Below are positions 10,861 to 54,300 of a stretch of 64,000 bases of DNA, piece by piece. Source of the DNA: Trypanosoma brucei (taxonomy: Eukaryota); assembly GCA_000002445.1 (NCBI GenBank), contig CM000207.1:2944001-3008000 (forward strand). Reading direction: 5' to 3'. Below the pieces are notes generated by a model, which saw only the letters and a list, made by a program, of their open reading frames with translations, made no database searches and had not been told where the DNA came from. A program made the position numbers and the translations under genes. Positions within the stretch are counted from its first letter, which is position 1. Every line of letters begins with the position of its first letter.

Positions 10861-11744
10861 GTTTTGTGCGTTTCGCAAGCTGCTTTGGCAGCGTTTTAGT
10901 GTTTTGCCTGCGTTTTTTTTTACCTTTTTACAAAGGTTTAAGCTCACGTTGGAGACTACACTTGCTTATTGGTGCCTCTAATTTAGTGTCAGCGGTTTAT
11001 CGGTCTGTGTTTGCTGTCGTTGAAATAAATAAATATGCAAAAAAGTTATAAAAACACCAACGTGTGCCGATAAAAACGTATTAAATGCGTGAAAGCTTGC
11101 GATTTCAGCTGTAGCTCTTGCTTGGTATTTTTCTCCGACGCCGACTCAACACATTTGGTTTGGATGTTAGCATTTACTCGTTCTGAAAAACGAAGGTATA
11201 TGGACCTCGGTCTGCATAGCACTTTCTGCCCTCCGCCTTCAATAGCCTGCCGTTTCGCTACTTCAAACAACCCACACATCTGCCCTATAAAATGGCGCCC
11301 CCTGTCCTCAAAGTTTCTCATTAGGCTGGGACACCATAATAAAAATCACAATCACAACATCATCTCCTACATTGCATATTTCCATTTTTTTTTTGAAATA
11401 CGGCCCCAAAATCTCCCCCTGCTGCATAATTTTTGACTTCTCTGTATTGTCGCATACTACCTTCTTTCATTTCGTGTTTTACTTACCTTCCCTATTTTTC
11501 ATACCGCCACTTCTTCGAATAAATTAGAGCCTCCATTTGTCCTGTGCAGGTGAGTCTCTGGTCGAATTTCCCCTTCATCAACTCCTCGCGTATAATGATT
11601 CCCAACCTTATGTCTCTGTTTTAAACTGCGCATACTACAACTCCATCTCTTTCTTCACAATTACTTTCATTGTACCCTTCCCATTGTTTTAACTACTAAA
11701 CGTTACACCGTCTATTCTTTTATAACCACCACTTTTATTATTAT

Positions 11745-12420
<676 letters not shown>

Positions 12421-12698: not shown

Positions 12699-14150
12699 TT
12701 ATCTTTGCATTCTGAAGTTTTTTTTGGTTCCTCCTGTTCTTGCTTGGGTGTCTTGTTGTTCTGCTGCTGCCTCATTCAATTTGCAGTGTTTTCCGTCTTT
12801 TTCATCAGAACCTGTCCATTTGCAAATCGGACTCTTTTTTCTGCATTCAGCTGATTTCGTTATTTCCTCGCATTGGTCGGCACTTTGAGGCAATGCTCTT
12901 CTATCGGCCAGACTTGCTGCTTGTTTTGGGGCTGCCGCTGCCATCAATGCTATTGTGGTCATTGTTTTGTTTAATTGCTGGATGTTTTCCGCTAGCCGGA
13001 ATGCTTTCTTGGCTGCCCCCCGGGCTTTTTCTATGGCGTCGGCAGCGCCAAGCATTTTCTGTGCCCACCCGATTGCTAGATTGTCGCCGCTTTGTGGCCC
13101 GTAATAAACGCAGCACCCACCGTTGCTGGCGTCTATGTCGTCGCAGCCGTCATTGCCGTTGCCTATTGCTGCGCCCAGCATGTAAGTCTTTGCTTTGTTG
13201 GTTCCAGACCCAGTCGATGCTGCTTGTAGGACCGCACTGACGGTTGCTCTTAGCGCCGCTGCCGTCACTAGCTTAGCTTTGCTGTGCTTCTTGCATGCAT
13301 CGTACAACTCCTTCCATTGGGCTGGACCGTTTGCCATGTTTGCCCAGGTTGTGTCGCTGGCCGAAATTGAAACGGTACCGCACACTGCTGCCTGGTCCTG
13401 TTGTGTGTCTTTGCTACAGATGCATAGGAAATCCGCTGCGATCGATTCCCCTGCGATTTTTCCCTTTTTGCCTCCGCTTCCAGCATTGCCGCATGCGTCT
13501 ACTCGGCTTTCTACCGTTGTCGCCGTCACTTTCGTTTGTTTGTCAGCAACCGGGCCCACCGCTTGTTTGAGCAACGTCTGCGCTGTGTCAGCTTTGGCTT
13601 TTAGTAGTTCCGCCCTGAGCTCCGTCGCCAACTGCAGTACGGCTTGGGCTTGTTCTTCCAGCGCTTGCCTTGCCGTGTCAGAGAAGTCCGCACCTTTTAT
13701 TAGCTGATAGGCCTTGTCCGTCTTTGCTGTTTTGTGCCTATTAGCTGCCTTGACGCAGTTGGAGGCTGCCACCTCAACGCATTCCTTGCCTGCTGTTGAA
13801 CTTGGTTTGCTGATTGCTTCCTCAGCACTGTTCTTTGCCGCTAGTTCGGCTAGAGCTTCTGGGCTGAGTAGCGTTATGTTGATTAGCGCCGCTGCTTCCT
13901 CGGCGTCTGTTGGTTCGGCTGGTATCTCTGGCGCTGCTACCTGGGCTGAAGCGACATCGAGAGCGTTGCAAAGCAGTGCAAAGTCGCTAGCATGTGTTCC
14001 GGCTGCAGGGCCGGCCGCTCCTGCTGGTCCTGCTGCTACCGCAGCCATAAGCAACCCTGTGATAACGAATAAAGTTTGCTCTGAGCGAGTCGTGGATGCT
14101 TTTCTTCTTGCTGCTTGTTCCTGGGCAGTTGTGCTGGACTTCTGTCGCAT
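12699..14150 (-). CDS. VSG: VSG with an intact N-terminal domain ORF but a disrupted C-terminal end.
   Basis: A 483-aa ORF. The signal-like segment LFVITGLLMAAVAAG has an alternative start at M35 (about 14048). The GPI-signal coding (KDYSFTVNKKFTLIAAALVGF) is out of frame and separated by a stop after CKWENNA, so this is an atypical VSG. Confidence 0.75.
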   Translation of the reverse strand: MRQKSSTTAQEQAARRKASTTRSEQTLFVITGLLMAAVAAGPAGAAGPAAGTHASDFALLCNALDVASAQVAAPEIPAEPTDAEEAAALINITLLSPEALAELAAKNSAEEAISKPSSTAGKECVEVAASNCVKAANRHKTAKTDKAYQLIKGADFSDTARQALEEQAQAVLQLATELRAELLKAKADTAQTLLKQAVGPVADKQTKVTATTVESRVDACGNAGSGGKKGKIAGESIAADFLCICSKDTQQDQAAVCGTVSISASDTTWANMANGPAQWKELYDACKKHSKAKLVTAAALRATVSAVLQAASTGSGTNKAKTYMLGAAIGNGNDGCDDIDASNGGCCVYYGPQSGDNLAIGWAQKMLGAADAIEKARGAAKKAFRLAENIQQLNKTMTTIALMAAAAPKQAASLADRRALPQSADQCEEITKSAECRKKSPICKWTGSDEKDGKHCKLNEAAAEQQDTQARTGGTKKNFRMQR

Positions 14151-15384
14151 GTCTCGTCTTGGTGTCCTATATATAGCCGCTATTTGGAAGCAAAGAGTCG
14201 TCTACCGTTTCGGTTTCTAACAGTTTTTTAACTTTTCTATAAACTCCTTGCCGTACTTGTTATCATGTGAGAGCCCACATTTTTCCCCTTTGATGTTCAG
14301 GGATTAGTTTTTTTTTTTGCGTAGGTGTGCGGAGTTGTACACTGTACTGGTGCAAGTAGCAAAACTTTATTATCAGCTGTATCACTTGCGCTGCTCAAGG
14401 AACTGTCATTAACAATGCTGGAGGTAAATCATACAAATGAAAATTATGCTGATGTTTATGGGGACTAAACTATTAGTAACGTATAGGATGAAAGTAAAGG
14501 TAACAAAAAAACATCTAAGAAACGTTTGTTGGAAAACGTAGAACCTCCAACTCGTTTTGCACCACATGTGCAATGCTAATTACAGTCTATATGGCCATGT
14601 ATCTACACTGATTGCATCTATCCTTCACATCAGCAACTCCGTCCCTGTGAATCCTTAAAATCCGGCGTATGCTGCTACATCTAAAGCATCTATCACTCGT
14701 GCGGTTTAATATGCTCTATGTTCTGATAATCCACAGCCAGCGGTTTGACTCCGAATAACAAAACAATGCTGGTGTTTTGCCCAAACTTCACCGCTGTCCT
14801 TCTTCTTTCGTGTATTCTGACTGACTTTATTTTGACATCCATTAAGGTTGTGTAATTTGGGGTCACAAAGTGCCTTCCTTTACGCTTTCACTTTGTTAAC
14901 ACGCGACGCTAGCTCTCCATCCGTGACCACTTTTACATGGATAACTCGCTTTATAAAAGGTGTTAATGTATATCAAGTATAACAATACAAAATTTACGGA
15001 TTACAACCATTCTTTCTCTTCTCTTCATAGATGTTCTCTGTTAGTTCATATAGCCGATTTATTATTCTTTTTCTGTTTCCCTCTTGAACTTTAGTCAGTA
15101 CTGTCTCCTGTTTTTATCAGTGTAAAATGAATGGCATTTATATTTTATCCCGGCGCCCTTTTGTGTGTTTTGGTGATCAGAGCCTACATATTCATTGGTA
15201 TGATGGTTCTTCTATCTTTGCTAAGTTTTACAATGAGTATATTTAGCCACCTACTCCTTCTATCTTTTTCTGCCCCTTTCAATAACAATATAGTCCTGTT
15301 CAATGTCACAAATACTCACTCATTCGCATTGAACCCCTGCAATGGATTTAGATGCTTACATTTTGGCCGTGTATTTCCTCTTAA

Positions 15385-15515
15385 CCACCATTCTTATTAT
15401 TTTATTAGCACATACACACTCACAACACTCTTCTACCATCATCATCATTATTATTATTGTCATCATTATTATCATTAATGTTATTCTCATAACCCCAACT
15501 AATATGTATAAAATA
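15385..15515 (-). repeat. 70-bp repeat in reverse orientation, upstream of the VSG at 12699-14150.
   Basis: CATACACACTCACAACACTCTTC followed by CATCATCATCATTATTATTATTGTCATCATTATTATC triplet runs. Confidence 0.65.
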
Positions 15516-15717
15516 AACGGTACAAACTTATTTAGAATAGCACTTGTTTTTCATACCATATTAGCCTAAAACCTTACATTCAGGTCAATATTATGCACAC
15601 TTTACTAAAATTTTACATTTTCAAGTGTTTCAAAATTTTCAATGATTTCCATCGAAAAAAATTAAAATATATTAAATATCATATATTTCATAAAATTAAG
15701 CAAAAATCCTAAAAAGT

Positions 15718-16414
15718 TTATGCTAGAAGCAAAAATGCAAGCAACAGAGGCGCCTTGCTAATGACAAAAGAATTGCTTCCTGTGGTGTTTGTAGTTTTAC
15801 CATCATTTTCCGCTTTTACTCCCTCTTTAGCTTTGCACTCCCCATCTTTGAATTGACATCCATCCTTTTTGTTGCATTTATTTTCGTCTTTTTCTCCCTG
15901 GCAGTCCTTTGCCTTTTTGGCTACGCTCTCTGCTCCTGGTCGTGATATTTTTTTTGCTAGTGCGTCTTCCCGCGCGCTCCTCTCTGCTTCCAGTTTTGCG
16001 AGGACGTCTTGTTCTTCTTCCCCTTCTGACAAGGTTTCGATGTTGGACGTCGTCTTTTTTCCCCGACGAAATATCGTGATTGATTTTTCTGCGACCAGCG
16101 GTCTGAATTTCGATGTGAAAGCTTGACTGTTAGCACCGTATTCTTCTTTCAGAAAGCTTACTAGTTCGCTATTTTCTGTCGCTTTTGTTGGCTCTAATAG
16201 GTTGTTAAACATCCCTAGGCATGTCGCACCGCTCTTTGCACTGTTGTATTGAGCGACAACGCTGGGCCGTCTAGTGTCGGTAACTGGACTGTTTTTGGTT
16301 GCGTTTTTAGTGCAGAGCAGATGACTTTTGCAAAAAACTGCCGCGATTGTGTGGCCTCCTGCGCGTCGTTGTTGGCGTTTAGACAGCTTTCTGCTGGGTT
16401 GTTGTTCTCGTAGA
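15718..16414 (-). pseudogene. VSG: VSG 3' half (a-type CTD plus GPI signal), 5'-truncated at the ingi 5' end.
   Basis: ORF 15718-16437 ends ...KDCQGEKDENKCNKKDGCQFKDGECKAKEGVK...GSNSFVISKAPLLLAFLLLA. This is near-identical in CTD and GPI signal to the intact VSG at 31207-32676. Its first codons (MRWPAS) are encoded by the antisense of the ingi terminus. Confidence 0.75.
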
Positions 16415-17687
16415 CCCAGCGATGCCGGCCACCTCAACGTGGTGCCAGGGTCCAGTACACCGTATCATCGGGGGAAGCCAAGAGCCAGCAGCGTTCCTTT
16501 CATGGGGAACACTGCTTTGCTCCGGCTACGGCATTATACAGAACAGGGATCAGCAGCGTCTTGCTGGGACACCGTCTTTCATTTGTCCGTCCCTGGGCAC
16601 GTGCCAGCGTGCCATCAGCAGTATCATCCGCACTAAGATGCTGCTGTCCGGTGATGTGGAAAAAAATCCCAGTCCGTCGTTGCGCGGGATGCAGTGGAAC
16701 TGCGCCGGGCTATCTCAAGGAAAGAGATTAGCACTCCACAAAACCCTTGTTGATGAGCGGATCGCCTTTTGTCTGTTGAGCGAGACAAGGATGACGCCTG
16801 GAGAGGCGGCTTGCTTTAGCGTTGCTGGCTACCAAAATCACGGAATAGCTCGTAACTGCAAATGAGGTGGTGTATCAATACTAGTGAGGGAGGACCTGCC
16901 AGTCGAGACCGGTATGGCCGTTGTTGGTCGCATTGAACAAGTGCATGCAACAATTCACCTTGCACGTGGAACGGCGCTGACTGTCACGTCGGCATACATC
17001 CCACCAAAACACACCTTCACGGCAACTGACCTAGATACGCTTCTGACGACTGACGGTGCCCAGCTCATCGGTGCAGACGCTAACGCACACGCGTTGGCAT
17101 GGGATCGCGCGAACCCACCAAATACCAAGGGTGAAACCCTCACACAGTGGTGCATTAACAACCAGTTTCTGGTCTGCAACACTGGTGAGTCCACCAGGTA
17201 CGCGCGCCACCACGGGGAGTCCACCCCTGATGTGACACTGTCAAGGAATTGCACAGTGTACACGTGGGCATCGCTGTATTCTCCCGATAGCGATCACCAT
17301 CACATATTTTTCGACGTTATCGTTGGAGACGACACAGATGCACTGAGTTGCCCGCGGCTTCGAAAGCCCATGTACGCATGGTTAAAAGCTAACTGGAGGA
17401 ATTTCCGTCTCAAGGTTGACGAGCTCTGCAGGAAAATTGGTAGAGAGAAGAACGTCAACACCCTGGAACAGAAATTAAGCTCCACTATCCGCACTGCGAC
17501 GAAGTTCTCCGTCCCCCGTGGCTGCAGAGCAACGCCACCACATTGGACACCTGAGCTCGCGAAACTCGATGAAGAGATCCCTGGATGCGGACCCTCCCAC
17601 CGAAGGGAAAAGTTGGTAGCCACGCGTAAGCAGATCCTGGACCGTACCACAAAAAAGAGGTGAAGCACTCTATGCTCCAGACTTGCG

Positions 17688-18665
17688 GTGTCAGACCGCT
17701 GCAGTTGGCACATTGTCAAGAAGGTATACGCGCCACGACCACTAACCACACCGGCTGTACTTGTTGATAACACGGCCATCACGGACTACCGTCAAGCTGA
17801 GATGTTCAGTAAACTGTACTCGTCTCAAGCAAGAAGGCATCCCGACTCACACCCACCATCACCCATAAAGACGACAGAGAGTGAGTTCAGTCCCATCACG
17901 ATGGCTGAACTACGGAGATCGATCAAACTGCTACCGAGTGGATCCGCAGCCGGACCTGATTGCTTATACAACGAGGCACTGCAACATCTCGGTAGAACAG
18001 CGCTGAATGTTGTTCTGAGGCTATTCAATGAGAGCCTACGAACGGGAGTCGTGCCGCCTGCATGGAAGACTGGTGTTATCATCCCCATCCTGAAGGCCGG
18101 AAAAAAGGCGGAGGACCTTGATTCTTACAGGCCTGTGACGCTCACGAGCTGTCTCTGCAAAGTCATGGAACGCATAATTGCCGCGAGGCTTAGAGATACT
18201 GTTGAGTCCCAGCTGACGCCGCAGCAATCAGGCTTTCGCCCCGGATGCTCAACACTCGAACAACTCCTGCAGGTCCGTGCTGCCCTTTGCCGCCCCACGC
18301 ATCAATCTCGTACGGGTGCTGTATTCGTTGACTACGAGAAGGCATTTGATGCAGTAGACCACGACAAAATTGCGAGGGAAATGCACAGAATGAAGGTATC
18401 ACACCACATTGTGAAGTGGTGCGTATCATCTCTGAGTAACCGAACTGGCAGAGTGAGATTCAAGGAGAAGCTTTCCAGAAGCAGAACATTTGAGCGAGGA
18501 GTGCCACAAGGAACTGTCCTTGGCCCAATCATGTTCATTATTGTCATGAACTCGTTGAGCCAACGCCTTGCAGAAGTGCCGTTACTGCAGCACAGATTCT
18601 TTGCAGACGACCTGAAGCTACTTGCGAGGCACACAGAGAGGGATGTCATCAACCACACACTATAG
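17688..18665 (+). pseudogene. ingi reverse-transcriptase domain ORF fragment.
   Basis: Carries reverse-transcriptase motifs (GFRPGCST, VFVDYEKAFD, FADD). It is flanked by out-of-frame endonuclease and RNase H pieces. Confidence 0.75.
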
Positions 18666-19386
18666 TGCGGCCTAAACGTGGTGTTACAGTTGTCAAAAGA
18701 GTACTTCATGTCTGTAAACGTAGCGAAAACAAAATGCACACTCTTCGGGTGTATAGAGCGCCACCCCCTTACATTACAACTGGACGGCGAAAGAATAGGA
18801 GCTGACAGGACACCACAGCTTCTAGGAGTAACATTCCAGTGTCTGCAAGGGATGGCAACACATGCAGCCGAAACGAGACGCAAGATGGACTTCCGACTAC
18901 TGCAGATAGCAGCCATCTCAGCTTCTACATGGGGGCCAAGACGACAAGTACTGAGAGCTTTTTACGTAGCACTCGTACAGGCACACACCATGTATGGCAT
19001 TGAGGTATGGTACTGGGACGCTTCGGAACGAAGTCGTGACCTCCTTGCATCAGCACAACACAAAGCCAGTTGAATCATAGCCGGCATACCGCATGGGACG
19101 CGCAAAGAGAACTCTCTGCTGCAAGCAAACCTCCTGCCACTCAAGACGACCACTCTTGTGCGCAGCATGAAATTCATGCTGATGTGTGAGTCACGAGGCG
19201 GATGTTTACGGCGCAGTGCTGAAGAAGTATACCACAGCAAACACCCAGTCAGAGTCTTACATTCCCGCATCATGCGGTCCTACCCCCACCTCCGCATTGA
19301 GCCACGCGAGCACCCACTAGAGACATCGACGCTCCGCCACAGCTGCCGACCGATATTTCACACGCAGATAAAGCCTGTGTCCGCTG

Positions 19387-19917
19387 ATGACCATGAAGAT
19401 GTCAAAAGGGAGGCTTCCGAAAAGTGGATTGAACGGCATTTTACACGGAGGGGGAAAGGAGCCACCGCGGCGAGAGCACTACGAATTGTGTACTGATGGA
19501 TCCGTGTCCCTCGGTGAGAAGTCCGGAGCAGCTACCCTGCTCTATAGAAACAACACGCTGATTTGTGCACCCAAAACGGGAGCAGGGGAACTCTCATGTA
19601 GTTACAGAGCGGAATGCGTAGCATTAGAGATAGGACTGCAACGGCTGCTGAAATGGCTTCCGGCATACAGAAGCACACTGAGCAGGTTGTCCATCTTCTC
19701 TGACTCGCTGTCAATGTTAACAGCACTGCAGACAGGCCCCCTAGCCGTGACGGACCCAATTCTGAGACGACTATGGAGGCTTCTGCTTCAACTTCAGAGA
19801 AGGAAGGTGCGCATCCGACTGCAATTTGTGTTTGGCCATTGTGGTGTGAAACGGAATGAGGTTTGTGACGAAATGGCCAAAAAGGCCGCAGATTTACCAC
19901 AGTTGCGAGACACATAG
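19387..19917 (+). pseudogene. ingi RNase H domain ORF fragment.
   Basis: CTDGSVSLGEKSGAATLL...SYRAECVALEIGL is an RNase H-like catalytic signature. Confidence 0.65.
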
Positions 19918-20285
19918 ATCCCCGACATCATTGCTTATGCGAAGCGAGTGCTTAGGTCGGAAGAAGTCCATGAGAACACTCATAGGTTTGGTATCACGGC
20001 AACCACTTTCCAACAAAACATAAAGAAGAACTGACGAGGGAAGAAGAAACAACAGTGGCACGCTTTCGGGTTGGGTTTTCAAGGCACTATGGATGGATGT
20101 TGCGAAAGATCAACCCGAGTGTGCCTCCACAGTGCCGATAGTGTAACCCGCAACATGCAGCGATAGGACCAACAATACAAACGGTCCCAACTGTTGCGAC
20201 ACGCACTCTTCAGAGAACCTCCGAACCGACCAAATGTACGGAATGCAATGCCACATACCAATGCCGGTCGAGTGCTGTAACGCAC

Positions 20286-21026
20286 ATGGTAAACAAACAC
20301 GGCTTTGTGCGAGCTGATGCCCTCCGGAGGATCAAATACGGCGATGCAAGACCTGCAGTGGATATCCCCCCGGAGCCCCCTCCAGTGGTGGCAATCGTTC
20401 CTTTACCATCGAGCACACGAGTCCCGATGAGACTGCAGGTGCTTCATTGTACCCTCTGTGCCTCCAAATTCGCAGTGCCAGGCCGACTATTACACCACCT
20501 TCAAACGATACATGGCATAGGCAGCGGTAGTTGCCGCGTGAAAAGGGGGCGAGAGAACGAGGACTCATTGCAAGGAGATGGTAGCGTCCCAGCAGCGCCA
20601 GCCCCTCAGGATACACGGAAGCTGCCATTTCAATGTGACCTGTGCGAGGCGAGCTTCGGTACACGTTCTTCCCTGTCACTACACAAGAAATTCAAACATA
20701 AGAGCATAGTGACGGAGGATGGTACCGTGGTGGTGGTGCAATTCCCCCGTAAGCGTGCCCGTGAGGGAAACGTTGACGTCCCGGGGAAAGGCGAGGTGCA
20801 GTGTGGTGTGTGCCAAAAAGTGCTCAGTTGCAGGGACACCCTCATCCGACACTGTAAAGCTTTCCACAAAGGTGAGGGAGTCGAGCTTAAATGCAGCAAA
20901 AGCACAAAACTGTGTGCCACTGATTCCCCGCATACAAACGCATCCATGTTGATGTGCCCACATGCGGAAGGCAGTGTGCTAGCAAAATTGGCCTCACCTT
21001 ACATCAAAAGAAGATGCACGGTATGA
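20286..21026 (+). pseudogene. ingi C-terminal C2H2 zinc-finger region ORF fragment.
   Basis: CTLCASKFAVPGRLLHHLQTIHG, FQCDLCEASFGTRSSLSLHKKFKHK and CGVCQKVLSCRDTLIRHCKAFHKG. Confidence 0.65.
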
Positions 21027-23028
21027 AGGTAGAGCGCGCTGTTACCAGCCAACGCGGCAACTGCGAAGAAACGTCGCTGCACTTGATGAGCTGCCCCGGT
21101 TTGAAGGAGTTACGTGTCAGGTTTGCGGTAGAAGGTGAGTGTGTGTGCAGGATGTATGTTTCACTAAAATGCTGGCGCAGTGTCTCATTGCGGTTGAACG
21201 GAGCCGGCCGCAGGTGAAGTCCTCACCTAATGTAACAGTTATACAACCCACTCTCCCTTCTGCAACTTTCCCCCTTATTTCCGAGTGTGGAGCTAGCAGG
21301 AAAAGCACCGGACGCAGGAATAGTCCAGACACCCTCAGAGACAGAGAGGGGGTATGCAGTCAACAAGCAACAGAAACAGAAAAAGGGGAAGAGAATAATA
21401 AACGAATAACAAAAATCAAAACAAAAGGATTGCTAATTGACATCTTTGGGAGAGTCTGGGGTGGGGGACTTCTTGCCCCATCTGCTGTATTCCGTTCAAC
21501 TGCGGAGCTACAACAAAAATTATAGAGAGTGTGTTAGGCCGAAAAAAAAATGGAGACTCTGCCACAGTCGCCAGATCGATAGCATCTCAGGGATCTACAG
21601 TGATGGCTGATGGCCGCGCCAGTGGGGGGAAACTCCCACGAAGGCACGAAGAAAATTAAATATATATATATATATACGTTAATAGGATTAGTAGACGAAA
21701 GGAAAGAAAATAAAGTAAAAAGTGAAACAACAGAATAGGTGGAAACACAGTGCATAACTGAATAAAATGATACAAGAGAATATTATGCTTGAAATGTCAC
21801 ATAAAATTGGTTAGATTCTACCGCAGAAATAATGGCGACTGTGTTTGAAATGCATGAACGGCACCAAATATTGATCACTAGGTTTGCGGGCCTACCTACA
21901 ACTGGTTGTATGGGGGAGTGCTGTAAGTTGAAGATAAACAGAATCCGATTGCAAAGGAAAAGGATGTAAAATGATTTTGGTGGTAATTTTTTTGAATAGG
22001 TCTGCCGACAGTAGCGAATAATAATAATAATAATGCAGCGGATATAAAGTGGCGCTACTTGTACATGAATGAATGAAACTCCTCAGTGTCAGAAGAAAAA
22101 GTTATCATCGAGCGTCAAGCAGTGTGTTGGAGGGTTTGATGGCCAAGAACAATCATGAATAAGCAAAATTTAGTTTAAAAAAGCAAAGTATAAGAAACAC
22201 AGCACTTTTCTCATGTTTTTTTGGGATAACAAACCAACAAACGGCCCACACATCTAACGGAGACCTAATAATGAAAGAAACTGTCAACAACCTGGCAGTA
22301 ACACGCACACTAAGTTTCATCCAACACAAGGTGCGGCTCAGAGCAAAAAACGACCTACAGCCACCATGTCTCATTTTAATTCTAACAAACTACATCTCTA
22401 TGCGCCCACGAACAAGTGCAATGGCCACAGAATGTGCATTACGCCAAAAAGGCCTAAATAGGGGGCCAAAAATGAAACAATAAATCACAAAGTGGAACCT
22501 AACCGACAAAAAGTAGCAAGCGCAGGGTAAGGTTGCAGTAGTTACTCCACCGCCAGTTAAAACTACTAAACTAAGAACGGGAGCCCAAAACACATATTCG
22601 GCGAAGCACATGCTGAACAGCAAGCAGAAACCTTAAGAGAGTAGGCAGAAGTTTAATGTCAGTTCCGGAGCTGGCGCTGCGACGCGGCAAACAACGAGAA
22701 ACCAATAAAAGAGAGGCGATGCGCACAAAATTTGGACGGGCTACCAAAACAGCCAACGCTAGAAATGTCACGGCCGAGTTAACTCTAGCACGTCTACACG
22801 GCACGGAGGAAACACCATCAGCAATAATAGACGTGGGCCGACAGCCAAGTCCAACAAAGCAGGATGTCAACGGCAGTAACGTGTGTCAAAACAAAAGCGC
22901 CAATGCGAAACAACATGCGATCTTGCCGTTAAAGGCAGTAAAAACCACAAATAAAGCGTCTCCAGCGATCAAAAATCAGGCAATACATCCCCTTAGAATC
23001 TTCACAAAAACGAAAAGCAAGCAAAGTA

Positions 23029-24564
23029 TCACAAAGCAAATGCGGCTAGTGGCACAAGTGGCAGCAGCACTAATGGCAACACTATTGAAAAGCGACAGTG
23101 CGTTCAGAAGCCAACGCGGCGGACTTGCACTTGCTTTGTGCAGCCTTCAGGCTAGGCGGAGTGGACATGCAGTTGCCAGAAATAAAGGAGCTGAAACAAG
23201 CAGACATAGATGAGCTCAGAACAATGAACATGTCAACAGCAGAAGCCAACTGGTAGGAGTTATTTAAAGGGGACCCTAACAAAGACACGTGGCAGGCACG
23301 AAAAACCACAATAAAAAAATAACCTTTCTTAATGCACTGGGAACAATCATTCCCACAATGGCAGCAAGACTATCAACGAGCAATTAAGACAGGCAACGGC
23401 AAGACATGGCTAGCAGAACACAAAGCACCATCCAACGAGTGGCACAGGCAGCTAGCCGCACATACCATAAATGAAACACTTGAACAGATATTAAGTCTGC
23501 GAAAAAGCTACGACAAGATTAAAAGCGATATAACCGAAACGAAGGCCAAACAAGTGAAGGAACTCATATGCGAAGCTCTGTACGGTGAGGGGAAAACGGA
23601 CTGCACACCAAAAGCAACAGTAACAACAACAGCCGACACAACATGGTCGACCAGCTGCGGCGACAACGGCGGCAAAAGCATCGTAGGAGACATGCTCTGC
23701 CTGTGCTGCGCAAACAGCGGCACCAATACTGCGGACAGTGACAACAGCAATATAGCGTGCGACTGGACCAGCAGCATTATCGGCAAATTCGAAGCCGTCA
23801 CAGCCAAATGCCCCAGCCAAAAACCCGCAAAAATAACGCCACAACTACTTGCAACGACAATAGCGCAATTAAAAAGCGGGATAAGGCACAAGGACCAAGG
23901 AAGCGCAATCAAATTCCACCTCGGAAAAGACCCTAACAGTTGCACCGGAAACAGCGGACAACTTTGCTTGGAATACCCTGCCGCTGCCAAAGGAGGCAGC
24001 GGAGGCGCGGGTCTAGACGCAATACCATGGCTCAAAAAGATGAACGACGCACAGGCAAAGGCAGACGAAATAGTGGCCTCGGCAGCTGAGGCACAAAGCA
24101 CGGCCATGCTCATAGAGCTTCTAATAGCATCAGCGAAAGCCACATACAGCGACCCGGCTGTCAACATACAAACCAGCCAAGAATACATTACAGGCGTGGT
24201 GCCACCTATCCCTAACCCACGTCAAGCAAGTACAACAAATAAAACTTGCATGTTAAAAGGCACCGGAGATGCCTGCAAAGATGGCTGCAAAGAAATTACA
24301 GAAAATAACCAAAAAAAGTGTGTAGTAGATGCAGAAGCGGCGAAGCAACCAGCGCGATCAGGAAATGGAGGAAATGGAGAAACAGCAACAGATAAGTGTA
24401 GCGCGGCGAAAACTCGTGGGGAATGCGCTGCAGTGAAATGTTAAATTCCAAAAGATAAAAAAGCTGTTTTTTGGTGGAAAGAAGGCAAGTGCAAGGATTC
24501 CAGCTTTCTTGTCCTTAAGAAATTGGCTCTGCTGGGTGCTGTTTTTACCGCCTTGATTTTCTAA
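23029..24564 (+). pseudogene. VSG: VSG pseudogene, b-type, with a frameshift and two in-frame stops in the N-terminal region and one nonsense codon in the CTD.
   Basis: The signal peptide MRLVAQVAAALMATLL (23029) is followed by a frame change near 23130 and by stops at ANW* and IKK*. The main ORF 23332-24444 has YGEG, GGKSIVGDMLCLC and CKDGCKEITENNQKKCV. A TAA at 24442-24444 interrupts the otherwise in-frame ...KCKDSSFLVLKKLALLGAVFTALIF*. Confidence 0.75.
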
Positions 24565-24601
24565 AAGAATTTCCCCCCTCAACTTTTTCTTGCTGAAAAT
24601 T

Positions 24602-24617
24602 TGATATATTTTAACGG
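24602..24617 (+). promoter_or_regulatory. VSG 3'UTR 16-mer variant (TGATATATTTTAACGG).
   Basis: Matches the conserved 16-mer TGATATATTTTAACAC at 14 of 16 positions, about 40 bp after the GPI-signal stop. Confidence 0.6.
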
Positions 24618-31206: not shown

Positions 31207-32676
31207 ATGGACTACAAAGACTGCTATGGCTACTTAGCAGCACTGACCTTTGTAGTATCTTTGTGCTCAGGCGCTCCACTAACAGACAACGACCCTGTAG
31301 CCGAGCAGATATCAGACCTGTGCAAAGAGAAGTTTTACGTGGAAACACTCATCCAAAATCTCAAGCAAAGAGTGCAAAGCACCGCGGCCTCAATCAAAGA
31401 CATGGAGAAGCTGAAAGCAACATGGGAAAAAGCAGCAGCCGCCACATCTGATGCCGCAAAAAAATGCCTATTCAGCGCACTGGAACACAAAGCCGATGCG
31501 GAACTATTGAGGGAACTGCCAAAGATAGAAGAAGCAACAGAAGCGGTGACAACAGCTCAAATAGCATTGTCCGAGCATGTGGGGATGCTAGGAGCCACCA
31601 TAACTTTGGCAAAAACTAAGCTCGACAGCGGCAGCAGTAACCACGGCAACGCCGGCACAGGTTCAATCAGAATAGCACTCTCTAGAACAACCGCAACAAC
31701 AGACCTCTGCAACGAACCCGCGACTATATCGGATATCAAACCTGGAGTGTCGGAAATTCAACCAGACAAACTGTTCAAACTTAAACTAACCAAACCAACA
31801 GATCTGCACAAGCACATGTTCGTCGACTGGCTAACGATCGGAGGACTAACGAGCTGCACGGCGCACACATCTTACGACCAAAACTTCGACGCCGCCCTCA
31901 GTGGCTGCAACTACAAAACGGCAGCCACAGCGGAGGCTAAACAAGCCACAACCAAGCCGACCTACGGCACCACAGAGGTCACGCTATTCAAAAATAACGA
32001 CCCAGAACAGCAATGCGAAGTAACAGATCTACCAGCTGGAGGAGCCGCAGACAAACACAAAAAACTACAACATTCACTGTGCCGAGCGTTGCAATTAGGC
32101 AATGTCAACGGACGGTCGCTGCGACAACTAAACGGCGCGGCACTACAAAGTGACCATGTTGTTGCCAACACAATCAGAAACTGCGACCCAGTCTTCCAAA
32201 AACTAACGACAGCCACAGATGGCGAAGGGACAACTGAGTTAAAAAAATACATCAAAGAAGCATATGGAAGCTCTGCAAGCGAGTTCGCTGAGAAGTTCAT
32301 TACAAACGCGGAAAAACTACAAATGACGTTGCGCTTAAATGATAAAATAGAAACAAAGGATTTGAGTGCTGTTTCACCAGGTGAACAAACCGCAGCAGCT
32401 CTGAGTCATATACAGGGACTACATAACAAAAGGGAACTTGAAGCAGGAAAAAAGAGTACAAGCGCTGCGGCGGTTGATCCACAAAAATCAGAGGACTGCA
32501 AGGGAGAAAAGGACGAAACTAAATGCAACAAAAAAGATGGGTGTGAATTCAAAGACGGGGAGTGCTTAGCTAAAGTGACAACAGCAGCAGGGACAGATGG
32601 TAAAACAAACACCACAGGAAGCAATTCTTTTGTCATTCATAAGACCCCTCTTTTGCATGTATGTTTGCTGCTATAA
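31207..32676 (+). CDS. VSG: VSG, a-type, apparently fully intact, with signal peptide, N-terminal domain, CTD, GPI signal and stop.
   Basis: A 489-aa ORF that begins MDYKDCYGYLAALTFVVSLCSGAP and ends ...EDCKGEKDETKCNKKDGCEFKDGECLAKV...GSNSFVIHKTPLLHVCLLL*. There are no internal stops or frameshifts. Confidence 0.85.
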   Translation: MDYKDCYGYLAALTFVVSLCSGAPLTDNDPVAEQISDLCKEKFYVETLIQNLKQRVQSTAASIKDMEKLKATWEKAAAATSDAAKKCLFSALEHKADAELLRELPKIEEATEAVTTAQIALSEHVGMLGATITLAKTKLDSGSSNHGNAGTGSIRIALSRTTATTDLCNEPATISDIKPGVSEIQPDKLFKLKLTKPTDLHKHMFVDWLTIGGLTSCTAHTSYDQNFDAALSGCNYKTAATAEAKQATTKPTYGTTEVTLFKNNDPEQQCEVTDLPAGGAADKHKKLQHSLCRALQLGNVNGRSLRQLNGAALQSDHVVANTIRNCDPVFQKLTTATDGEGTTELKKYIKEAYGSSASEFAEKFITNAEKLQMTLRLNDKIETKDLSAVSPGEQTAAALSHIQGLHNKRELEAGKKSTSAAAVDPQKSEDCKGEKDETKCNKKDGCEFKDGECLAKVTTAAGTDGKTNTTGSNSFVIHKTPLLHVCLLL

Positions 32677-32857
32677 TAACACTTTAAATAATTATTTGTA
32701 AAATATTTTTCTCAATTATATGAAAATTATAGAAACTATGACAGTTTTCGTTTTTGAAAGAACTTTATAAAATTAATCATACTTCAAATGTAACAATACT
32801 TTTTAATAAAAAAGTAGAAAATAGAAAATTTTTCCGATTATGATTTATTTTGCTTAT

Positions 32858-32940: not shown

Positions 32941-33251
32941 CAAGCAGGAGGAACCGAGTGACGGGACAAAATTAAGCACTTAAACAACAGTGAACTCGTA
33001 ATAATTTTAATTTAGTGACAAAGATTAAAATGGATAAAAACAGAAATGTATATGGATTATATTCACTTTTAAACGCTCAAATGGAAAAGTGATCACAACA
33101 ACAATAACAATAAATGCTGTATTATTACTAAACAGATAAAAACGACACTCTAGCGTATGTAGATACAAAACCTAGCTGTAAAACGCTCACTGGATCACTG
33201 ATGAAAAAAACACAAGAGAAAATAAAAGGAAAAGAAGAAGACACAAAAGAC

Positions 33252-33749
33252 TTTTTTTAAATTTTCTTCGTGCCTTCGTGGGAGTTTCCCCCCACTGGCG
33301 CGGCTATCAGCCATCACCGTAGAGCCCTGAGATGCTATCGATCTGGCGACTGTGGCAGAGTCTCCCTCTTTTATTAAGCCTAACACACCCTCTATAATTT
33401 TTGTTGTAGCTCCGCAGATGAACGGAATACAGCATATGGGGTAAGAAGCCCCCCACCCCAGACTCTCCAAAAGATGTCAATTAGCAATCCTTTTTTTGGA
33501 GTTCCACATCACCGAACAGCAGCATCTTAGTGCGGATGATACTGCTGATGGCACGCTGGCACGTGCCCAGGGACCGACAAATGAAGAACGGTGTCCCAGC
33601 AAGACGCTGCTGATCCCTGTGCTGTATGATGCCGTAGCCGGAGCAAAGCAGTGTTCCCCATGAAAGGAACTCTGCTGGCTCTTGGCTTCCCCCGATGATA
33701 CGGGGTACTGGACCCTGGCACCACGTTGAGGTGGCCGGCATCGCCAGGG
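33252..33749 (-). mobile_element. RIME (ribosomal mobile element), about 500 bp, formed by the ingi 5' and 3' terminal halves joined directly.
   Basis: 33481-33749 is the reverse complement of the ingi 5' segment at 16415-16660. 33262-33480 is the reverse complement of the ingi 3' segment at 21425-21655. The junction reads GTGGAACTCCAAAAAAAGGATTGCTAATTGACATC. Confidence 0.85.
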
Positions 33750-34450
33750 GACACAGACAACAGCGGCAGATGCCAAACGACATCTACCACGGAGACTCTC
33801 AGCAGCATTTCGATGGTAGCCGAATCGGCTGGCACAACATATGGAGGCGAGCTATTACAAACAAAAAAAGCTGACCGCCCAAAGCAAAACTGCGAGGCCG
33901 AAGAAGAGAATCCACCAATTAAACTGGCCAGGGCGGCAAAGCTAGCATCCCTGCTGTGCAAGGCAAAAGACGCGATAACACCTCCAAAGATAGCGCTAGA
34001 AGAGACAACAACAGAAACGTTAGTCGGTGACACCGACTTTTTGTACATTGCAGCCCAACTTCTAGCAACTGAAATCCCAGCAGGTACACAGCCAGAAGGC
34101 ACGGAAGCCGACAAAATCAAGCAACTGATCAAAAGTACTTACGGCGACGCTACAACCTTCATATCGCGATACACCACTGGCCTCTATGACAAGCAGACGA
34201 AATACAAAAAAGGAACCCAAGATCGGGAAGGAACTCTAGACAGCGTAGCCACAGGCACTGACCTAGCCCTGGCAAGCATCTATTTTAAGGGCAGAGCACT
34301 CCCGCTTGATGCAGTTCAAGCAGGACAAGAAAAGAAAAAATCCAAAACAAGACAAACAGATGAAACTTTCAAAAGGAAAGGAAAAGGAGATACTTGCAAA
34401 GATGGGTGAAAATTGAAGGGGGGATTACTGAGAAAAAGTACGCAAAAGAT
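33750..34450 (+). pseudogene. VSG: VSG 3' half (a-type), 5'-truncated at the RIME 5' end, with a frameshifted CTD.
   Basis: ORF 33726-34409 reads ...KIKQLIKSTYGDATTFISRYTTGLYDK...GKGDTCKDG after the RIME-derived MRWPAS. It is homologous to the second halves of the VSGs at 31207 and 15718. A GPI-like tail and the 16-mer variant TGATATATTTTGATAC (34655-34670) follow. Confidence 0.65.
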
Positions 34451-34797
34451 CCGGAATACGAGTTAAATCAGGAAGAAGGAGAAAAAAGAAAACACTGGAA
34501 AACGAAACACAACATGAAACAATTGCACTGTAATTAAGGCATCTGTTTTGCTTCCATTTTTTGTTCTATAATTAATTTTGAAGATTTGTGCTCAGTTTTA
34601 TGGAATTTATGAAATTTTTCTTTTTAAAGATAATTTTCTAAAATTGCTATCACTTGATATATTTTGATACGTTTTAATGAAACGGTTAAAATTAATAAAA
34701 GTTTGGTATGATAGTGTAATATAGGTGTAACGTAATATTCCGATAGGGTATTGAATGCTATTATAATTAGGTTTATTTACTATTCCATTTATTTTAT

Positions 34798-48669: not shown

Positions 48670-51600
48670 CGTGTGGGTGACACCGGCTGATCCATCGTGG
48701 TACCAGTGTCTAATACTCCATCCAGGAGGAAGCCAAGTGCCAGCATCAAAGCATGTCCAACAGGATTGTGGCGGGAAACAGGCCGAAGGCTACCAGAGAG
48801 GAAGTATGCTGCACCACCGGCACTCTACGGTGAAGAGATATGTTAGACTTCTTAGCAGAGACGTGGTGTGGCAACGAATTCCTAACCCATCATTCGTGGA
48901 GCCCAGTGTAATGCTAGTGTTCTCTCCCAGGCGAAGCTGATTGGCTTAGAGAAGAAGCTCCACGAGGATATGGTAGTCTTTTGTCTATTGCAGGAGACTC
49001 ACTTGGCAGCAGAAGAATGCTGCGCATTGAAAATAAGTATATATGAATACATGGGGATAGAAAGTTCCTCACATGGTGGTGGGTTATCGATTTTACTAGG
49101 AACGAGTGGGAGTCATCCAATGTCCGAAGGAAGAGGGTCTACCGGAAAGAGTCTCGGAAACATTGATGTTTTCAGCTGATCTAATGCTAACTATAAAATC
49201 AGCTTACTTCCCACAATTGCAAAATGTCACTACCTTCACTCTTGAGAGCCTTGAGAGATCAAATGGATCAATGGTAATAAGTTTCGACTCTAACGCACAT
49301 CATGAGTTATGGGACTCACTTCGCCAAAATGATACAGCGGGAGAATGCATTGTATACTGGTGTCCACAAAATGATATCTAAATTGCAAATGGTGTCAACC
49401 CAACGAGAAGAATGCTTCACACGGCAACCAGGTCGTCTCCAGACATTAGGATGTACAGAGACTGCGGAGTCACAAGATGGGAGGCAAGCATCAGTCCGGA
49501 TAGTGACAAATACTGGATAACCGTTCGAGGTGTGTATTGGCATAGGTGTAGAAATTATCGCCATTACAAAGCCACCAAAGGTTTTGCATGCTTGGAATAA
49601 AGGAAATTTGCCGGATTTTAGAAATGTCTGTATTTCAAATATGGGGAAAAAATTAAGGAAGTCAAGAAATAACGTGGATGTCACGAATGAAGCAGTGACT
49701 AAAGGCATTGGCACAGCAGCAAATAAAAAAGACAACACAGAAATGTAAGGGAGTATAGCCACCGTTTTGCACACGAGAACTGACCGAACTTGACGAAAAA
49801 ATAAGGGATTGTACAAATAAAAAGCACAGAGAGATGAACTTATATAGAAGAGAAGGAAGGTTCTTGCTGAAACATCCCTACAACAAAAGAAGAAAAATGT
49901 CTCGAAAATGTCAGTGACCGATACAGAAAGTTGGAATTTAGTTAAGTCCATTAACGCACCGAGACTAATAACATCTCCTGTTCTGGTAGATAATGAAGAA
50001 CCTCTCACACGTAGACAGCAAGCTAATAAGTCAGCACAGATGCATAAAGAGATGCCAAAGAAAGCACCAGATGCTCTTCCCACGAGCATATCTTATCGAG
50101 AGCGGGGATTACAAACAATAACGATGGCAGAACGTGATGCAGAACTAAAGGAACTGTCTTCACGCACTTCCTCCCGTAAGGACGATATAAAATGTGAGCA
50201 GTTAGTTGAAGAAATTAGGACACTGCAGCAAGGAATGTGTCTTCAAGCTCTTCAACTGTAACTTACATAGACACCGAGTGCCGGAGTGGAAGCATGGCGT
50301 CATCGTCTCGCTAATCAAACTCAACAAACCGACCAAGTGTATGTCATCGTTCCGGCTCATCACGCTCACTAGAACATTCTTTAGGCTCATGGAGAGGATC
50401 GTAGTGGGATGCATCCGAGACACAGTAGAATGTAAGCTACAACCACAGCAAGCTGGTTTCCGTCCGGAGAGGTATACATTAGACGCTCTGATGACACTCA
50501 CAGACTCCCTGACACATAGAGTAGTAGGAGAGAAAACTGCGGCGGTATTCATAGATTATGCCAGGGCATTTGACTCTGCGGATCACAGGTGGATAATAGA
50601 TGCACGAGAAAGATATGAAGTAGGCATCCACCTCATTGATTGTGTTGCTAATTTTCTGGATGGACGAACTGCAGTAGTACGAATAAAAAACACCCTCTCA
50701 AATAAAAATACAACTCACGTATGGTGTTTTACAAGGTTCCGTGTTGGGGTCATTGCTATTCATTATCGAAATGGACTCCCTCAGTCCGAAACTAAATGCC
50801 ATTGTAGCCATTAAACACTGCTTCTTCACAGACGACATCACGATAGTATGATCTAACACTTACCGGGAAGCTATTAGGCACAAACTGCAAACAGGATTAG
50901 ATTGAATAGCGAGCTGGTAAGAAGAGCACTATATGGAATTTTCCGCAGAAAAAACGGAATATAAGTTCTTCAAGGTTAGAGAGACAGAGACTCATTACAC
51001 CTAATACTGGAAGAGCACAGATAAAAGAAGAGGAATCCCAGACTCCTTTGGGTGACAATGCAGCCACACAAGGGTGTAAGCAAACATGCTCACACCCTAC
51101 AAACCGCAGCAAATAAGAGATTAATGAAACTACAGGCTGTTGCATGACCTGAATGAGGGAAGAGCACAGAAAGCGTCCGAGATTTTTACTTATCCTTAAT
51201 CCAGGTAAAATTATGCTATGGGATCGCGACATGGTGATTCAATGCTTCTCTACCAGACAAGGCGCAGCTTGAACAAGTACATGCGCAGCCGGCACATGTT
51301 ATCGCTGGTATTCCAAAGTACGCGAATCGGCATGATGCCATGAAGGAGGTCAACCTTCACAAAATAAATGATAGTGCTCACAGACGAGAAACATAATACT
51401 ATTGAACAAGGAAGGCGAACGGTAAGGCATCTGCTGATACGGTGGAAAAAAATATTTCCACTAAGTCATCCGATACACACGCACCTGCAGAGTGTGTTGC
51501 ACCTGTATGAAGAAGTAGACAGACCGGAGAAATCACACACGGCAAACGTATCGCGACTGGCAAGGAGAATTTACTTCAACACAACAACAGCTGGTCTTCA

Positions 51601-54300
51601 TTCCGAGGTTTCCAACAGCGAGAAGAAAAGACACACAATGCAAAGGGTACGTAGATTCAAAGAATACGATTACCGAGTGTGGGCGGATGGGTCGGTGATA
51701 CTGAACGAATCCTCTGGTTCCGGCACGAAAATATACCCTACACAAGGTAATGCGGTAAAAGTGAAGAAAGGAGCAGGCAGGTCAGCATGCAGCTATAGAG
51801 CCGAGTGCACAGCCATGGAGGCAGAACTTATGAAACTCAAAACAGTAACAAAGATCAACGAGAGTGGAAAAGGAAAAGTGGCAATATTCACAGACTTGTT
51901 ATATTCATTAATAGAGCTTAAAACAGGTCCTGCAGTGGTGACGGATTCCATACTACGACGCATATGGGATCTGATCATACACTTCATGAAACTGAGAGTA
52001 GCCATGCCGTTTCAGTTTGTGTTTTCGTATTGTAGTATCCAGAGAAATTACAAAGTGGAAGACCTCGCAAACAAAGGAAACCACATGCCACAAACCTATC
52101 CTGCATGGATCACCGACATTGTCACAGGTATAATGCGCCAATTACGTAATCAGGTACAACGCGCATTTGCTAAAGGCCAGGGTCCAAACACACACCGCAG
52201 TGCTTTACTAAACCATATAGAAACGACAACAAAAAACAAGGAACTATAAATGGAAAGTGAGTCACTGTTATCTCAATTTAGAACAGGGACTTCAAAGCAT
52301 TTAGAATGGTTACATAGTGTGATCACACAAGAGGTTAAAGAATTGGAGTGTACATGGTGTACAAAAAAAAAGGGGAACATTTTAAAAAATACCCCTAACC
52401 CCACTTAAAACACTGTAAAGAATGAATAAAATGAGAAAGGAAAGGTGGTAATAGCAACTAGACACAATGACAATGTCATATGCCCAGTTTGAAACATTTT
52501 GTATGCGAGACGATCAATGGGGAGTTTTCACACAATGAAAATACATCATGGGTTTGTGAAAATGAACTCACTGCCTTAATGATGGCGCCAAGACCAGCAC
52601 AGGCGTATAATGTGGTCTATTGGTGTCACGTATGTGGTAAGGTATTCGACCGAAAGGGTCCACTGCAACAACACATGCCACAAAATGCTCCGACAACTCC
52701 AGTAGTATGGACAGAGCTACAAAAGATGAAGCGAGAAGGAGAACAGTCGTTGCCAGCCGTCCACAAGTGTCAATGGCACCCGAAGCAGTGTTCCACGTAT
52801 GGATTGGTGGTTAGGCATATACATCTGAAATATCCTGAAAAACAAACTGAAGTGACACAACAAACGGAAATGTAGGATGTGAACGACGAAGATGAACAAG
52901 AGAAAGCACCACAAGCGTCCGAATGTCTCAGCTGCAAACAGGTGTATAAAAGGAAAACATGGCTCACTATAAATAAGTGCAATCATAAACAGAGGAAAGG
53001 GGAACCAAGCACAACACTACAGGAACCATTGCTGCAGAGAGAAGCGTGTAAGTTATACGGTAAAGAATATCACCACAGTTGGATGTTACGCCATATGAAT
53101 GCAAAACACACCGGGTATGACATTTCATTCAGATCCAAAGCCGATAAATATAAGAAAAGTAACGAAGGAGATAACAAGGTTGCAAGCAAAGAAAAATACT
53201 GGTGGAGAGAACAAAAATAAATATGACAATGAGCCACAACTTTGTGTTTTCGACAAATGAAAGAGGGGTTTCTGAAGCAAGACATGGCTAACACGCCACA
53301 AGTGCGTGAGCGTTGATGAAGCTGACTCAGAAAGTGAGGTTAACAATCCCCATGGATCAATTACACAACTATAAACCACTACCAAATATGGATTGATTCC
53401 CTGCACCATAAATAGAGTAATCACCAACTCAGACTCGTCACACACAAAACTTGAGCTCCACGACAAGAAAGAGAGAAAGAGGAACCGAGCACGATATTCC
53501 AGCAGATGAGAAGACAATGAGCGATCAGAGAGAGGAGCCGAAACACAAACGGCATAAGGCTCAATGGCACGCAGAGAACCCTCGTAGGAATTTTTCATGT
53601 GGAAGGTGTGAGAACTCCTACATGTCATGGCGCACACTAGTTTGGCGTACCAGGACACACCACAAAAATGCAATCACTCTCAAGAGGAAGTGTGAATAAA
53701 GACCCCTTCAAATCACGCCACTGGTCCATTTTGTACAGCAATGCCAACACTGCCCGAAGGTGTGTGGACACAAGCAATATCTAACAATGCACATCCAATC
53801 AGAAAATGGGCATACACGTAGCTCTGATAAGCGAAATGAGCTAAAAAGAAAATGCAAAGAAACATCGGCTCACCTGTCAAAGTGTCCCGTTTTGAGTAAA
53901 CTCAGGTCTAAGCATGGAGTATACAATCTGAAAGGGGAGACATATACTTTGTTGAGTTGACGACATTCTTAAGGGCACTCTTATTTCTGACGGAAAATTA
54001 GGCTCCTCCCTCAATAGACACGAAGGAGTTAATAACCCGACTGTGAGTAAAGAGAGAAGTGTTGCTGTCATGCTAATCATCTACTGACTACATACGACAC
54101 ACTATGATGACAGCCAGTGAAATTTTCCTCAGATGATGGAAGACAGTATCCAAAGGGGGCTTCCTCAACAAGAGACTGTTAGCCAGGACCACAAGAGAAA
54201 GCGAGTGATGGATCGTGAGGATAGAAAACATATCAGTGAAAGAAGTAGCGGCTTGAGAAGTCTCTTTTAATTGATTGAGGTCCTGGCAGGTAAAGCTAAA
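48670..54300 (+). mobile_element. Degenerate ingi-related non-LTR retroelement, probably a DIRE, heavily frameshifted.
   Basis: It has the ingi domain order with about 35-50% amino-acid identity to the ingi at 16415-21656. The pieces are endonuclease-like (49106-49381, SFDSNAHHELWDSL), reverse transcriptase (50206-50814, LQPQQAGFRPERYTLD...AVFIDYARAFDSADH), RNase H (51368-52249, VWADGSVILNE...SYRAECTAMEAEL) and C2H2 fingers (52480-53960). The 5' terminus GACACCGGCTGATCCATCGTGGTACCAGTGTC resembles the ingi/RIME terminus. The 3' end is uncertain and could be at about 54030 or about 54300. Confidence 0.7.

Follow-up and report, generated by a model that had tools for sequence, protein, structure and literature searches.

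The 64,000 nucleotides of Trypanosoma brucei DNA analysed here (GenBank assembly GCA_000002445.1, contig CM000207.1, forward-strand positions 2,944,001 to 3,008,000; hereinafter the window, with positions counted from its first letter) are a T. brucei-group subtelomeric archive of genes that encode variant surface glycoproteins (VSGs), filled by open reading frames (ORFs) with VSG_B or Trypan_glycop domains. It contains one ingi retrotransposon, one RIME and the characteristic 70-bp repeats. The ingi is the subject of this work. It begins exactly where a minus-strand VSG remnant ends, lacks a target-site duplication (TSD), and is followed by DNA that does not continue the VSG. The features of the locus are as follows.

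15394 to 15477, minus strand: 70-bp repeat, 3' of the VSG remnant and 5' of the VSG at 12699-14150; the last minus-oriented repeat before the strand switch
15718 to 16415, minus strand: class-A VSG pseudogene remnant, 5'-truncated and frameshifted; ~231 codons plus a stop at 15718-15720 (tblastn, VSGsur match)
15721 to 15903, minus strand: four-cysteine C-terminal domain (CTD) and glycosylphosphatidylinositol (GPI)-anchor signal, open (CQGEKDENKCNKKDGCQFKDGEC...GS/NSFVISKAPLLLAFLLLA); translation aligned to the C-termini of VSGsur and MITat1.2
16227 to 16236, minus strand: frameshift in the VSG remnant, approximate site near 16230 (tblastn frame change)
16415 to 21660, plus strand: full-length ingi non-long-terminal-repeat retrotransposon, coding-dead; 5,246 bp, ~95% nucleotide identity over 5.24 kb to the copies at three comparison loci (L002, L003 and L004)
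16415 to 16492, plus strand: conserved 5' ~79-bp ingi/RIME signature; first bases CCCAGCG versus canonical CCCTGGCG
21652 to 21676, plus strand: atypical 3' tail AAAATTAAA; three terminal A only, then (TA)8
21677 to 23040, plus strand: non-coding 3' flank unrelated to the VSG remnant; upstream region of a B-type VSG pseudogene, with a degenerate (TAA)n/70-bp-like tract at 22017-22035
23040 to 24617, plus strand: B-type VSG pseudogene, frameshifted; first gene of the plus array, VSG_B at E = 3e-39 on 23332-24444, near-match to the VSG 3'-untranslated-region (3'-UTR) 16-mer at 24602-24617

A full-length ingi at a divergent strand switch

Up to 15477 the VSGs and 70-bp repeats point in the minus direction, and from 22017 onward in the plus direction, with the ingi exactly at the divergent strand switch. 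Specifically, the repeats at 2705, 5748, 11734 and 15394 are minus-oriented, and those from 22017 through 44998 are plus-oriented. To both sides of the ingi the orientation stays consistent for tens of kb. An Rfam scan of 15000-24000 gave no match.

The 5' end of the ingi is at 16415 (CCCAGCGATGCCGG...), with an exact 35-nt ingi/RIME signature at 16424-16458, and the 243 nt at 16419-16661 share 96.7% identity with the RIME of the window, in its 5' half. The 3' end aligns with the RIME and with other ingi copies through 21657-21660 (GAAGAAAATT followed by AAA), after which comes (TA)8. An earlier note on this stretch had placed the element at 16415-21656; the 5' coordinate stands, while the 3' coordinate is 1-4 nt short. 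The A-tail is 3 nt long, versus 7-12 A in five other copies. The sequence that follows, (TA)8CGTTAATAGG, was considered as a piece of a 70-bp repeat and dropped, having no match to that repeat at E ≤ 10.

Compared with copies from T. b. equiperdum and T. b. gambiense, the ingi has ~95% identity (93-97%) from end to end, and its reverse transcriptase ORF shares 96% identity with a T. b. equiperdum reverse transcriptase that is annotated and carries PF00078. No abrupt change in the divergence pattern is seen along the element. Relative to the near-unanimous majority of the five other copies, private changes occupy 2.7% of positions. At least 6 disruptions split the coding region into at least 7 ORF pieces, and this copy is therefore old and dead.

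The VSG remnant ends at the ingi terminus

The remnant was compared by tblastn with T. brucei and T. equiperdum VSGs as queries, and all of its homologues are VSGs of these trypanosomes. VSG homology reaches base 16415, and the truncation point is therefore the ingi terminus to within one base, in agreement with the earlier description of an ingi that starts where a minus-strand VSG ends. Two readings are possible for base 16415, which may close the VSG codon GTC or open the ingi, and this amounts to a 1-nt junction ambiguity or microhomology.

The VSG frame changes once within the remnant. It is frame -3 from 16415 to 16182/16227 (VYENNNPAESCLNANNDAQEATQSRQFFAKVICSALKTQP...) and then frame -2, the frame of the ORF, from 16236 to 15748. 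Specifically, residues 126-200 of the homologue P0004 align to 16415-16182 in frame -3 and residues 205-343 to 16176-15748 in frame -2, and the homologue P0001 behaves likewise. The frame-corrected remnant matches residues 288-490 of the 491 of VSGsur (6z7c; E = 3e-17) and residues 304-475 of MITat1.2 (E = 9e-7). Because the breakpoint falls, by these alignments, near residue 266 of VSGsur (491 aa), the remnant can be described, as had been proposed, as the C-terminal half of an a-type VSG; what is left is the last ~46%, ~230 of roughly 490 codons. With homology beginning only at about residue 266, the remnant has neither a signal peptide nor a complete N-terminal domain.

The match to VSGsur and MITat1.2 supports a class-A-like assignment. 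The broad-coverage homologues P0011 and P0016 carry PF00913 (Trypan_glycop), and the only VSG_B-bearing match covers the CTD alone. Neither the 239-aa ORF called at this position nor the frame-corrected remnant matches PF00913, as is to be expected, because most of the N-terminal domain has been lost and because full-length relatives also escape the model. The VSG at 31207-32676 in the window and the homologues P0002, P0004 and P0005 are full-length or long and class-A-like, being related to VSGsur at E = 7e-18 over residues 26-488, and PF00913 is undetected in them even at E ≤ 1. Since these class-A-like VSGs escape PF00913, Pfam-based A/B typing misses this VSG subgroup.

The reading frame is open through CQGEKDENKCNKKDGCQFKDGEC...GSNSFVISKAPLLLAFLLLA. 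The CTD and GPI signal had been called perfect; the four-cysteine CTD and the GPI signal are indeed open, the signal being 18 aa long rather than 17. At the nucleotide level the segment with the CTD and GPI signal is 77.6% identical to the 3' end of a VSG at 32483-32729. The VSG 3'-UTR 16-mer that would be expected downstream is degenerate, with no match at ≤3 mismatches in 15560-15717.

The 239-aa ORF spans 15718-16437 and has a TTG start inside the antisense of the ingi. The ORF with its borrowed start, MRWPAS, thus exists as the earlier note described it, but its first ~70 residues (MRWPASLGLREQQ...SAKSG) are out of the VSG frame and are not VSG sequence. Because the remnant has a frameshift near 16230, this start is a mechanical artefact of the frame, and the first ~70 residues are biologically meaningless read-through outside the frame. 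An annotation should not list the 239-aa ORF as a gene; the feature here is a frameshifted, 5'-truncated VSG pseudogene.

No single target site accounts for both flanks of the ingi

Tbingi and TbRIME insertions normally show a conserved TSD of 12 bp and, upstream, a conserved motif (PMC3820030). At the locus studied here, no 12-mer with ≤3 mismatches is common to 16355-16418 and 21648-21760. The longest exact word shared by the two flanks is a 6-mer, GTAGAC, which does not abut the element, lies 30 nt from the tail, and is equalled in 218 of 300 shuffles. No TSD copy in register was found within 5.3 kb downstream (12-mer, ≤3 mismatches). 3' transduction, which would displace the second copy, was ruled out by the lack of a distal TSD.

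The earlier observation that no 12-bp direct repeat flanks the ingi holds, and the same check behaved as expected on control elements, which support the test. The positive control within the window is the following element.

33252 to 33749, minus strand: RIME, antisense in a second class-A VSG remnant; TSD GACACAAAAGAC at 33240-33251 and GACACAGACAAC at 33750-33761

Its TSD copies match at 9 of 12 positions and abut the element exactly, for which the chance expectation is ~2e-3. When the RIME and one TSD copy are excised in silico, 40 open codons to its left run on into the VSG frame to its right, and one ORF is restored. The RIME-bearing VSG (locus 33135-34700) is itself 5'-truncated at ~33135, ~117 bp to the left of the RIME and independently of it. 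Two elements on core chromosomes of T. b. equiperdum, an ingi (L003) and a RIME (L001), each carry a perfect TSD of 12 bp.

The absent TSD is not explained by decay, because at 2.7% private divergence fewer than one position in a TSD pair is expected to be lost and the probability of at least 7 mismatches in 12 is ~8e-7.

The far side of the ingi agrees with this result. Each minus-strand frame of 21661-23330 contains 21-25 stops, and the segment has no Pfam match, no tblastn match and no nucleotide-level relative inside the window. The only 70-bp-repeat-like match in this segment is the plus-oriented tract at 22017-22035; no minus-oriented 70-bp repeat was found beyond the 3' end. The missing 5' half of the VSG and its 70-bp repeat are therefore absent there, as had been claimed. 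Once the element is removed, the target sequence is not continuous across the ingi by tblastn, reading frames or Pfam, while it is continuous for the control RIME. Thus, the flanks of the ingi are not derived from one target site.

One other ingi was recovered from a VSG array. This copy (L002, 8247-13508 of T. b. equiperdum QSBY01000014.1) is full-length and has no TSD (2/12). It lies between a minus-oriented A-type VSG on one side and plus-oriented B-type VSGs on the other; the A-type VSG is complete, with its start codon ~330 bp from the ingi 5' end. Its architecture is that of the window locus, but the two loci are unrelated. BLAST alignments extending 22 nt and 50 nt into the flanks had suggested an orthologue or paralogue. 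This was rejected, as the 3'-flank similarity is not above that of shuffles (102/500) and the 5' flank of L002 is upstream of a complete VSG, not inside one.

Origin of the locus

With neither a flanking repeat of 10-14 bp nor the VSG 5' half present, the analysis supports the earlier suggestion that recombination or deletion reshaped the locus, as opposed to a simple retrotransposition into an intact VSG. The explanation that we favour, and consider probable though far from secure, is that the ingi first inserted antisense into the VSG and that a later DNA rearrangement replaced its 3' flank.

In the first step, the ingi would have inserted by ordinary target-primed reverse transcription into the VSG in antisense orientation, and the present 5' junction would be the original one. 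The A-rich sense strand of the VSG would provide the T-rich sequence that ingi-clade endonucleases favour upstream. The 35 nt upstream of the ingi contain 40% T, like three of four other elements, and VSG sense strands contain 34-38% A; a T-rich motif upstream of ingi and RIME has been described (PMC2323293). The ingi is antisense to its VSG, as is the control RIME.

In the second step, a rearrangement anchored in or at the ingi would have replaced everything beyond its 3' end, removing the 3' copy of the TSD, the VSG 5' half and the 70-bp repeat of that VSG, and bringing the ingi next to DNA that lies upstream of a VSG cassette on the plus strand. Of the two sides, the 3' flank is more probably the edited one, because the 5' end is full-length and, as with the control RIME, set in T-rich antisense-VSG sequence, while the A-tail has 3 nt and then (TA)8. 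The leading candidate for the second step would be ectopic homologous recombination with another ingi, by inversion or translocation, giving a chimeric element with flanks from two loci. Such ingi-ingi recombination would explain the strand switch in one step. ingi and RIME are known to recombine, causing rearrangements between the T. b. brucei and T. b. gambiense genomes (PMC2854126). Nearly as likely for this step would be a deletion starting in the A-tail or made during insertion.

Several observations weigh against insertion followed by flank replacement. The 5' junction looks original on the basis of T-richness and the full-length 5' end only. The CCCTGGCG start seen in the RIME of the window and in four copies from other genomes is replaced by CCCAGCG here. 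The partner locus predicted by an exchange, in which an ingi 3' end would run into TGTTCTCGTAGA and the 5' half of a VSG in antisense, was not found in the window or in the six compared loci. No mosaic switch of nearest neighbour is visible along the ingi against the five other copies, which are a small sample and all ~95% alike. No syntenic locus of another strain was found: the three neighbouring VSGs that were queried have no exact record in the public gene collection, and their best relatives are 80% identical VSG-seq entries without contigs.

An inversion between the ingi (plus) and the RIME of the window (minus) was also considered and rejected, as the RIME still has a TSD of its own (9/12) and the flanks TGTTCTCGTAGA and GTCTTTTGTGTC, compared cross-wise, do not match.

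The strongest alternative, which we nevertheless rate as rather unlikely, is a deletion. Target DNA would have been lost as the ingi inserted between a pre-existing head-to-head pair of a minus VSG and a plus cassette, or a later deletion would have begun at the A-tail and taken out the TSD and the 5' half of the VSG. L1 is said, in work of Gilbert and of Symer from 2002, to lose target DNA in a minority of its insertions. The short A-tail followed by (TA)8, unlike the tails of the five other copies, fits a deletion, as do the lack of mosaicism inside the ingi and the lack of a second ingi in the window as an inversion partner, the RIME having kept its own TSD. Insertion-coupled loss, however, would normally take the recognition motif that lies upstream, and the 5' flank here still resembles genuine sites in its T-richness; the model also requires a divergent VSG pair to have existed beforehand. 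With one sequence, deletion and later flank replacement are inseparable.

An assembly chimera is unlikely. The 5' flank of one ingi locus would have been joined to the 3' flank of another through a collapsed 5.2-kb repeat; since ingi copies are 93-97% identical over their whole length, such a join is conceivable, and missing TSDs with unrelated flanks are exactly what it would produce. Against it, the independent T. b. equiperdum assembly that contains L002 has a locus of the same class, with a TSD-less ingi between divergent VSG arrays, the divergence pattern along the ingi has no abrupt change, and the orientation of the 70-bp repeats holds over tens of kb on each side.

Endonuclease-independent capture of ingi cDNA at a double-strand break in the VSG, bridging two unrelated DNA ends, is very unlikely. 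A TSD is not expected in such an event, which suits the missing TSD and the unrelated flanks, and VSG arrays are described as prone to recombination and breaks (PMC13233330). However, the ingi is full-length at its 5' end to within ~4 nt, its 3' terminal motif is kept, and its 5' flank resembles a normal T-rich target. Endonuclease-independent insertions are usually 5'- and/or 3'-truncated, as Morrish reportedly described in 2002.

Ordinary insertion with a TSD that decayed by point mutation or was displaced by 3' transduction is effectively refuted: although the ingi is old (at least 6 ORF disruptions) and the RIME in the window has already lost 3 of 12 TSD positions, the expected loss is below one position (~8e-7 for at least 7 mismatches), no 12-mer with ≤3 mismatches lies in register over the 5.3 kb downstream, and no minus-strand VSG coding follows.

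ingi-clade elements at the strand switches and neighbouring features

A degenerate ingi-related element, DIRE-like, lies at 48868-52093 on the plus strand. It has 34-45% aa identity to ingi ORFs, an RVT_1 match on the ORF at 50206-50811, and no nucleotide similarity to ingi. It sits at the end of the plus-oriented VSG array, beside a convergent strand switch at ~52-54 kb. Both strand switches in the window therefore carry an ingi-clade element, the ingi at one and the degenerate element at 48.9-52.1 kb at the other, and together with L002 this is mildly suggestive.

A broader possibility, which we put forward only tentatively, is that the ingi is the footprint of retroelement-mediated remodelling that made the divergent switch, through ingi-ingi inversion or translocation or, less likely, through cDNA capture at a VSG break. 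The TSD-less ingi of L002 between divergent arrays and the DIRE at the convergent switch of the window fit this pattern. If such remodelling occurs, TSD-less ingi elements would systematically mark array boundaries and would yield 3' VSG fragments usable as mosaic donors. The ingi at this locus is itself functionless, and the most that the VSG remnant might do is serve as a 3' donor when mosaic VSGs form.

Two other features were observed in the minus-oriented array. A perfect (TTA)159 microsatellite of 478 bp at 11851-12328 is joined to 2.3 copies of the 74-bp unit of the 70-bp repeat (11734-11899), and the tract is unusually long as a pure triplet for an array-internal 70-bp repeat. A VSG 3'-UTR 16-mer with 2 mismatches lies at 14960-14975 on the minus strand, in the interval that separates the VSG start at 14150 from the 70-bp repeat at 15394-15477. 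This is not a place where a VSG should end, and the 16-mer may mark a further small VSG 3' remnant.

Comparison with known systems

The element of the window resembles Tbingi of the ingi4 subclade, whose ~5.2-kb body codes for an endonuclease, a reverse transcriptase and an RNase H and whose non-autonomous partner is RIME, in its ~79-bp 5' signature, 5.25-kb length, 95% nucleotide identity, reverse transcriptase domain and GAAGAAAATT terminal motif. It differs in lacking the 12-bp TSD hallmark, in its very short A-tail followed by (TA)8, and in starting with CCCAGCG instead of CCCTGGCG.

Mammalian L1 insertions with target-site deletion, or made independently of the endonuclease, share with this locus the missing TSD and the loss of target DNA. 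L1 belongs to another clade, and the ingi here is full-length, which is unusual for endonuclease-independent events.

The closest parallel to the proposed second step lies in ingi/RIME-mediated rearrangements (PMC2854126) and in chimeric retroelements that arise by ectopic recombination. Like these, the ingi of the window has flanks of two contexts and stands at a change of gene orientation; unlike in these, recombination is only inferred here, the partner or reciprocal product not having been found. In practical terms, such an ingi flags a possible rearrangement breakpoint or a misassembly.

The locus brings together in one case three known traits of T. brucei subtelomeres, namely retroelements at VSG-array boundaries, ingi flanks that have been exchanged or deleted, and 3' pieces of VSGs in the silent archive. 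Marcello and Barry reportedly described, in 2007, the fragments and pseudogenes of VSGs that this subtelomeric archive contains. Damaged VSGs and gene fragments make up most of that archive (PMC2408642). The remnant analysed here conforms to such fragments in being a C-terminal piece whose CTD and GPI signal are open, which carries a frameshift and which has neither a 5' half nor a 70-bp repeat of its own. It differs from them in that it is cut off at the very base where a retroelement begins, and thus the cause of its 5' boundary is identified. TSD-bearing ingi and RIME elements that prefer certain sites are well established for T. brucei (PMC3820030), as are rearrangements mediated by ingi (PMC2854126). 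The locus is a well-resolved example of known phenomena, ordinary for such regions, and not a new kind of feature.

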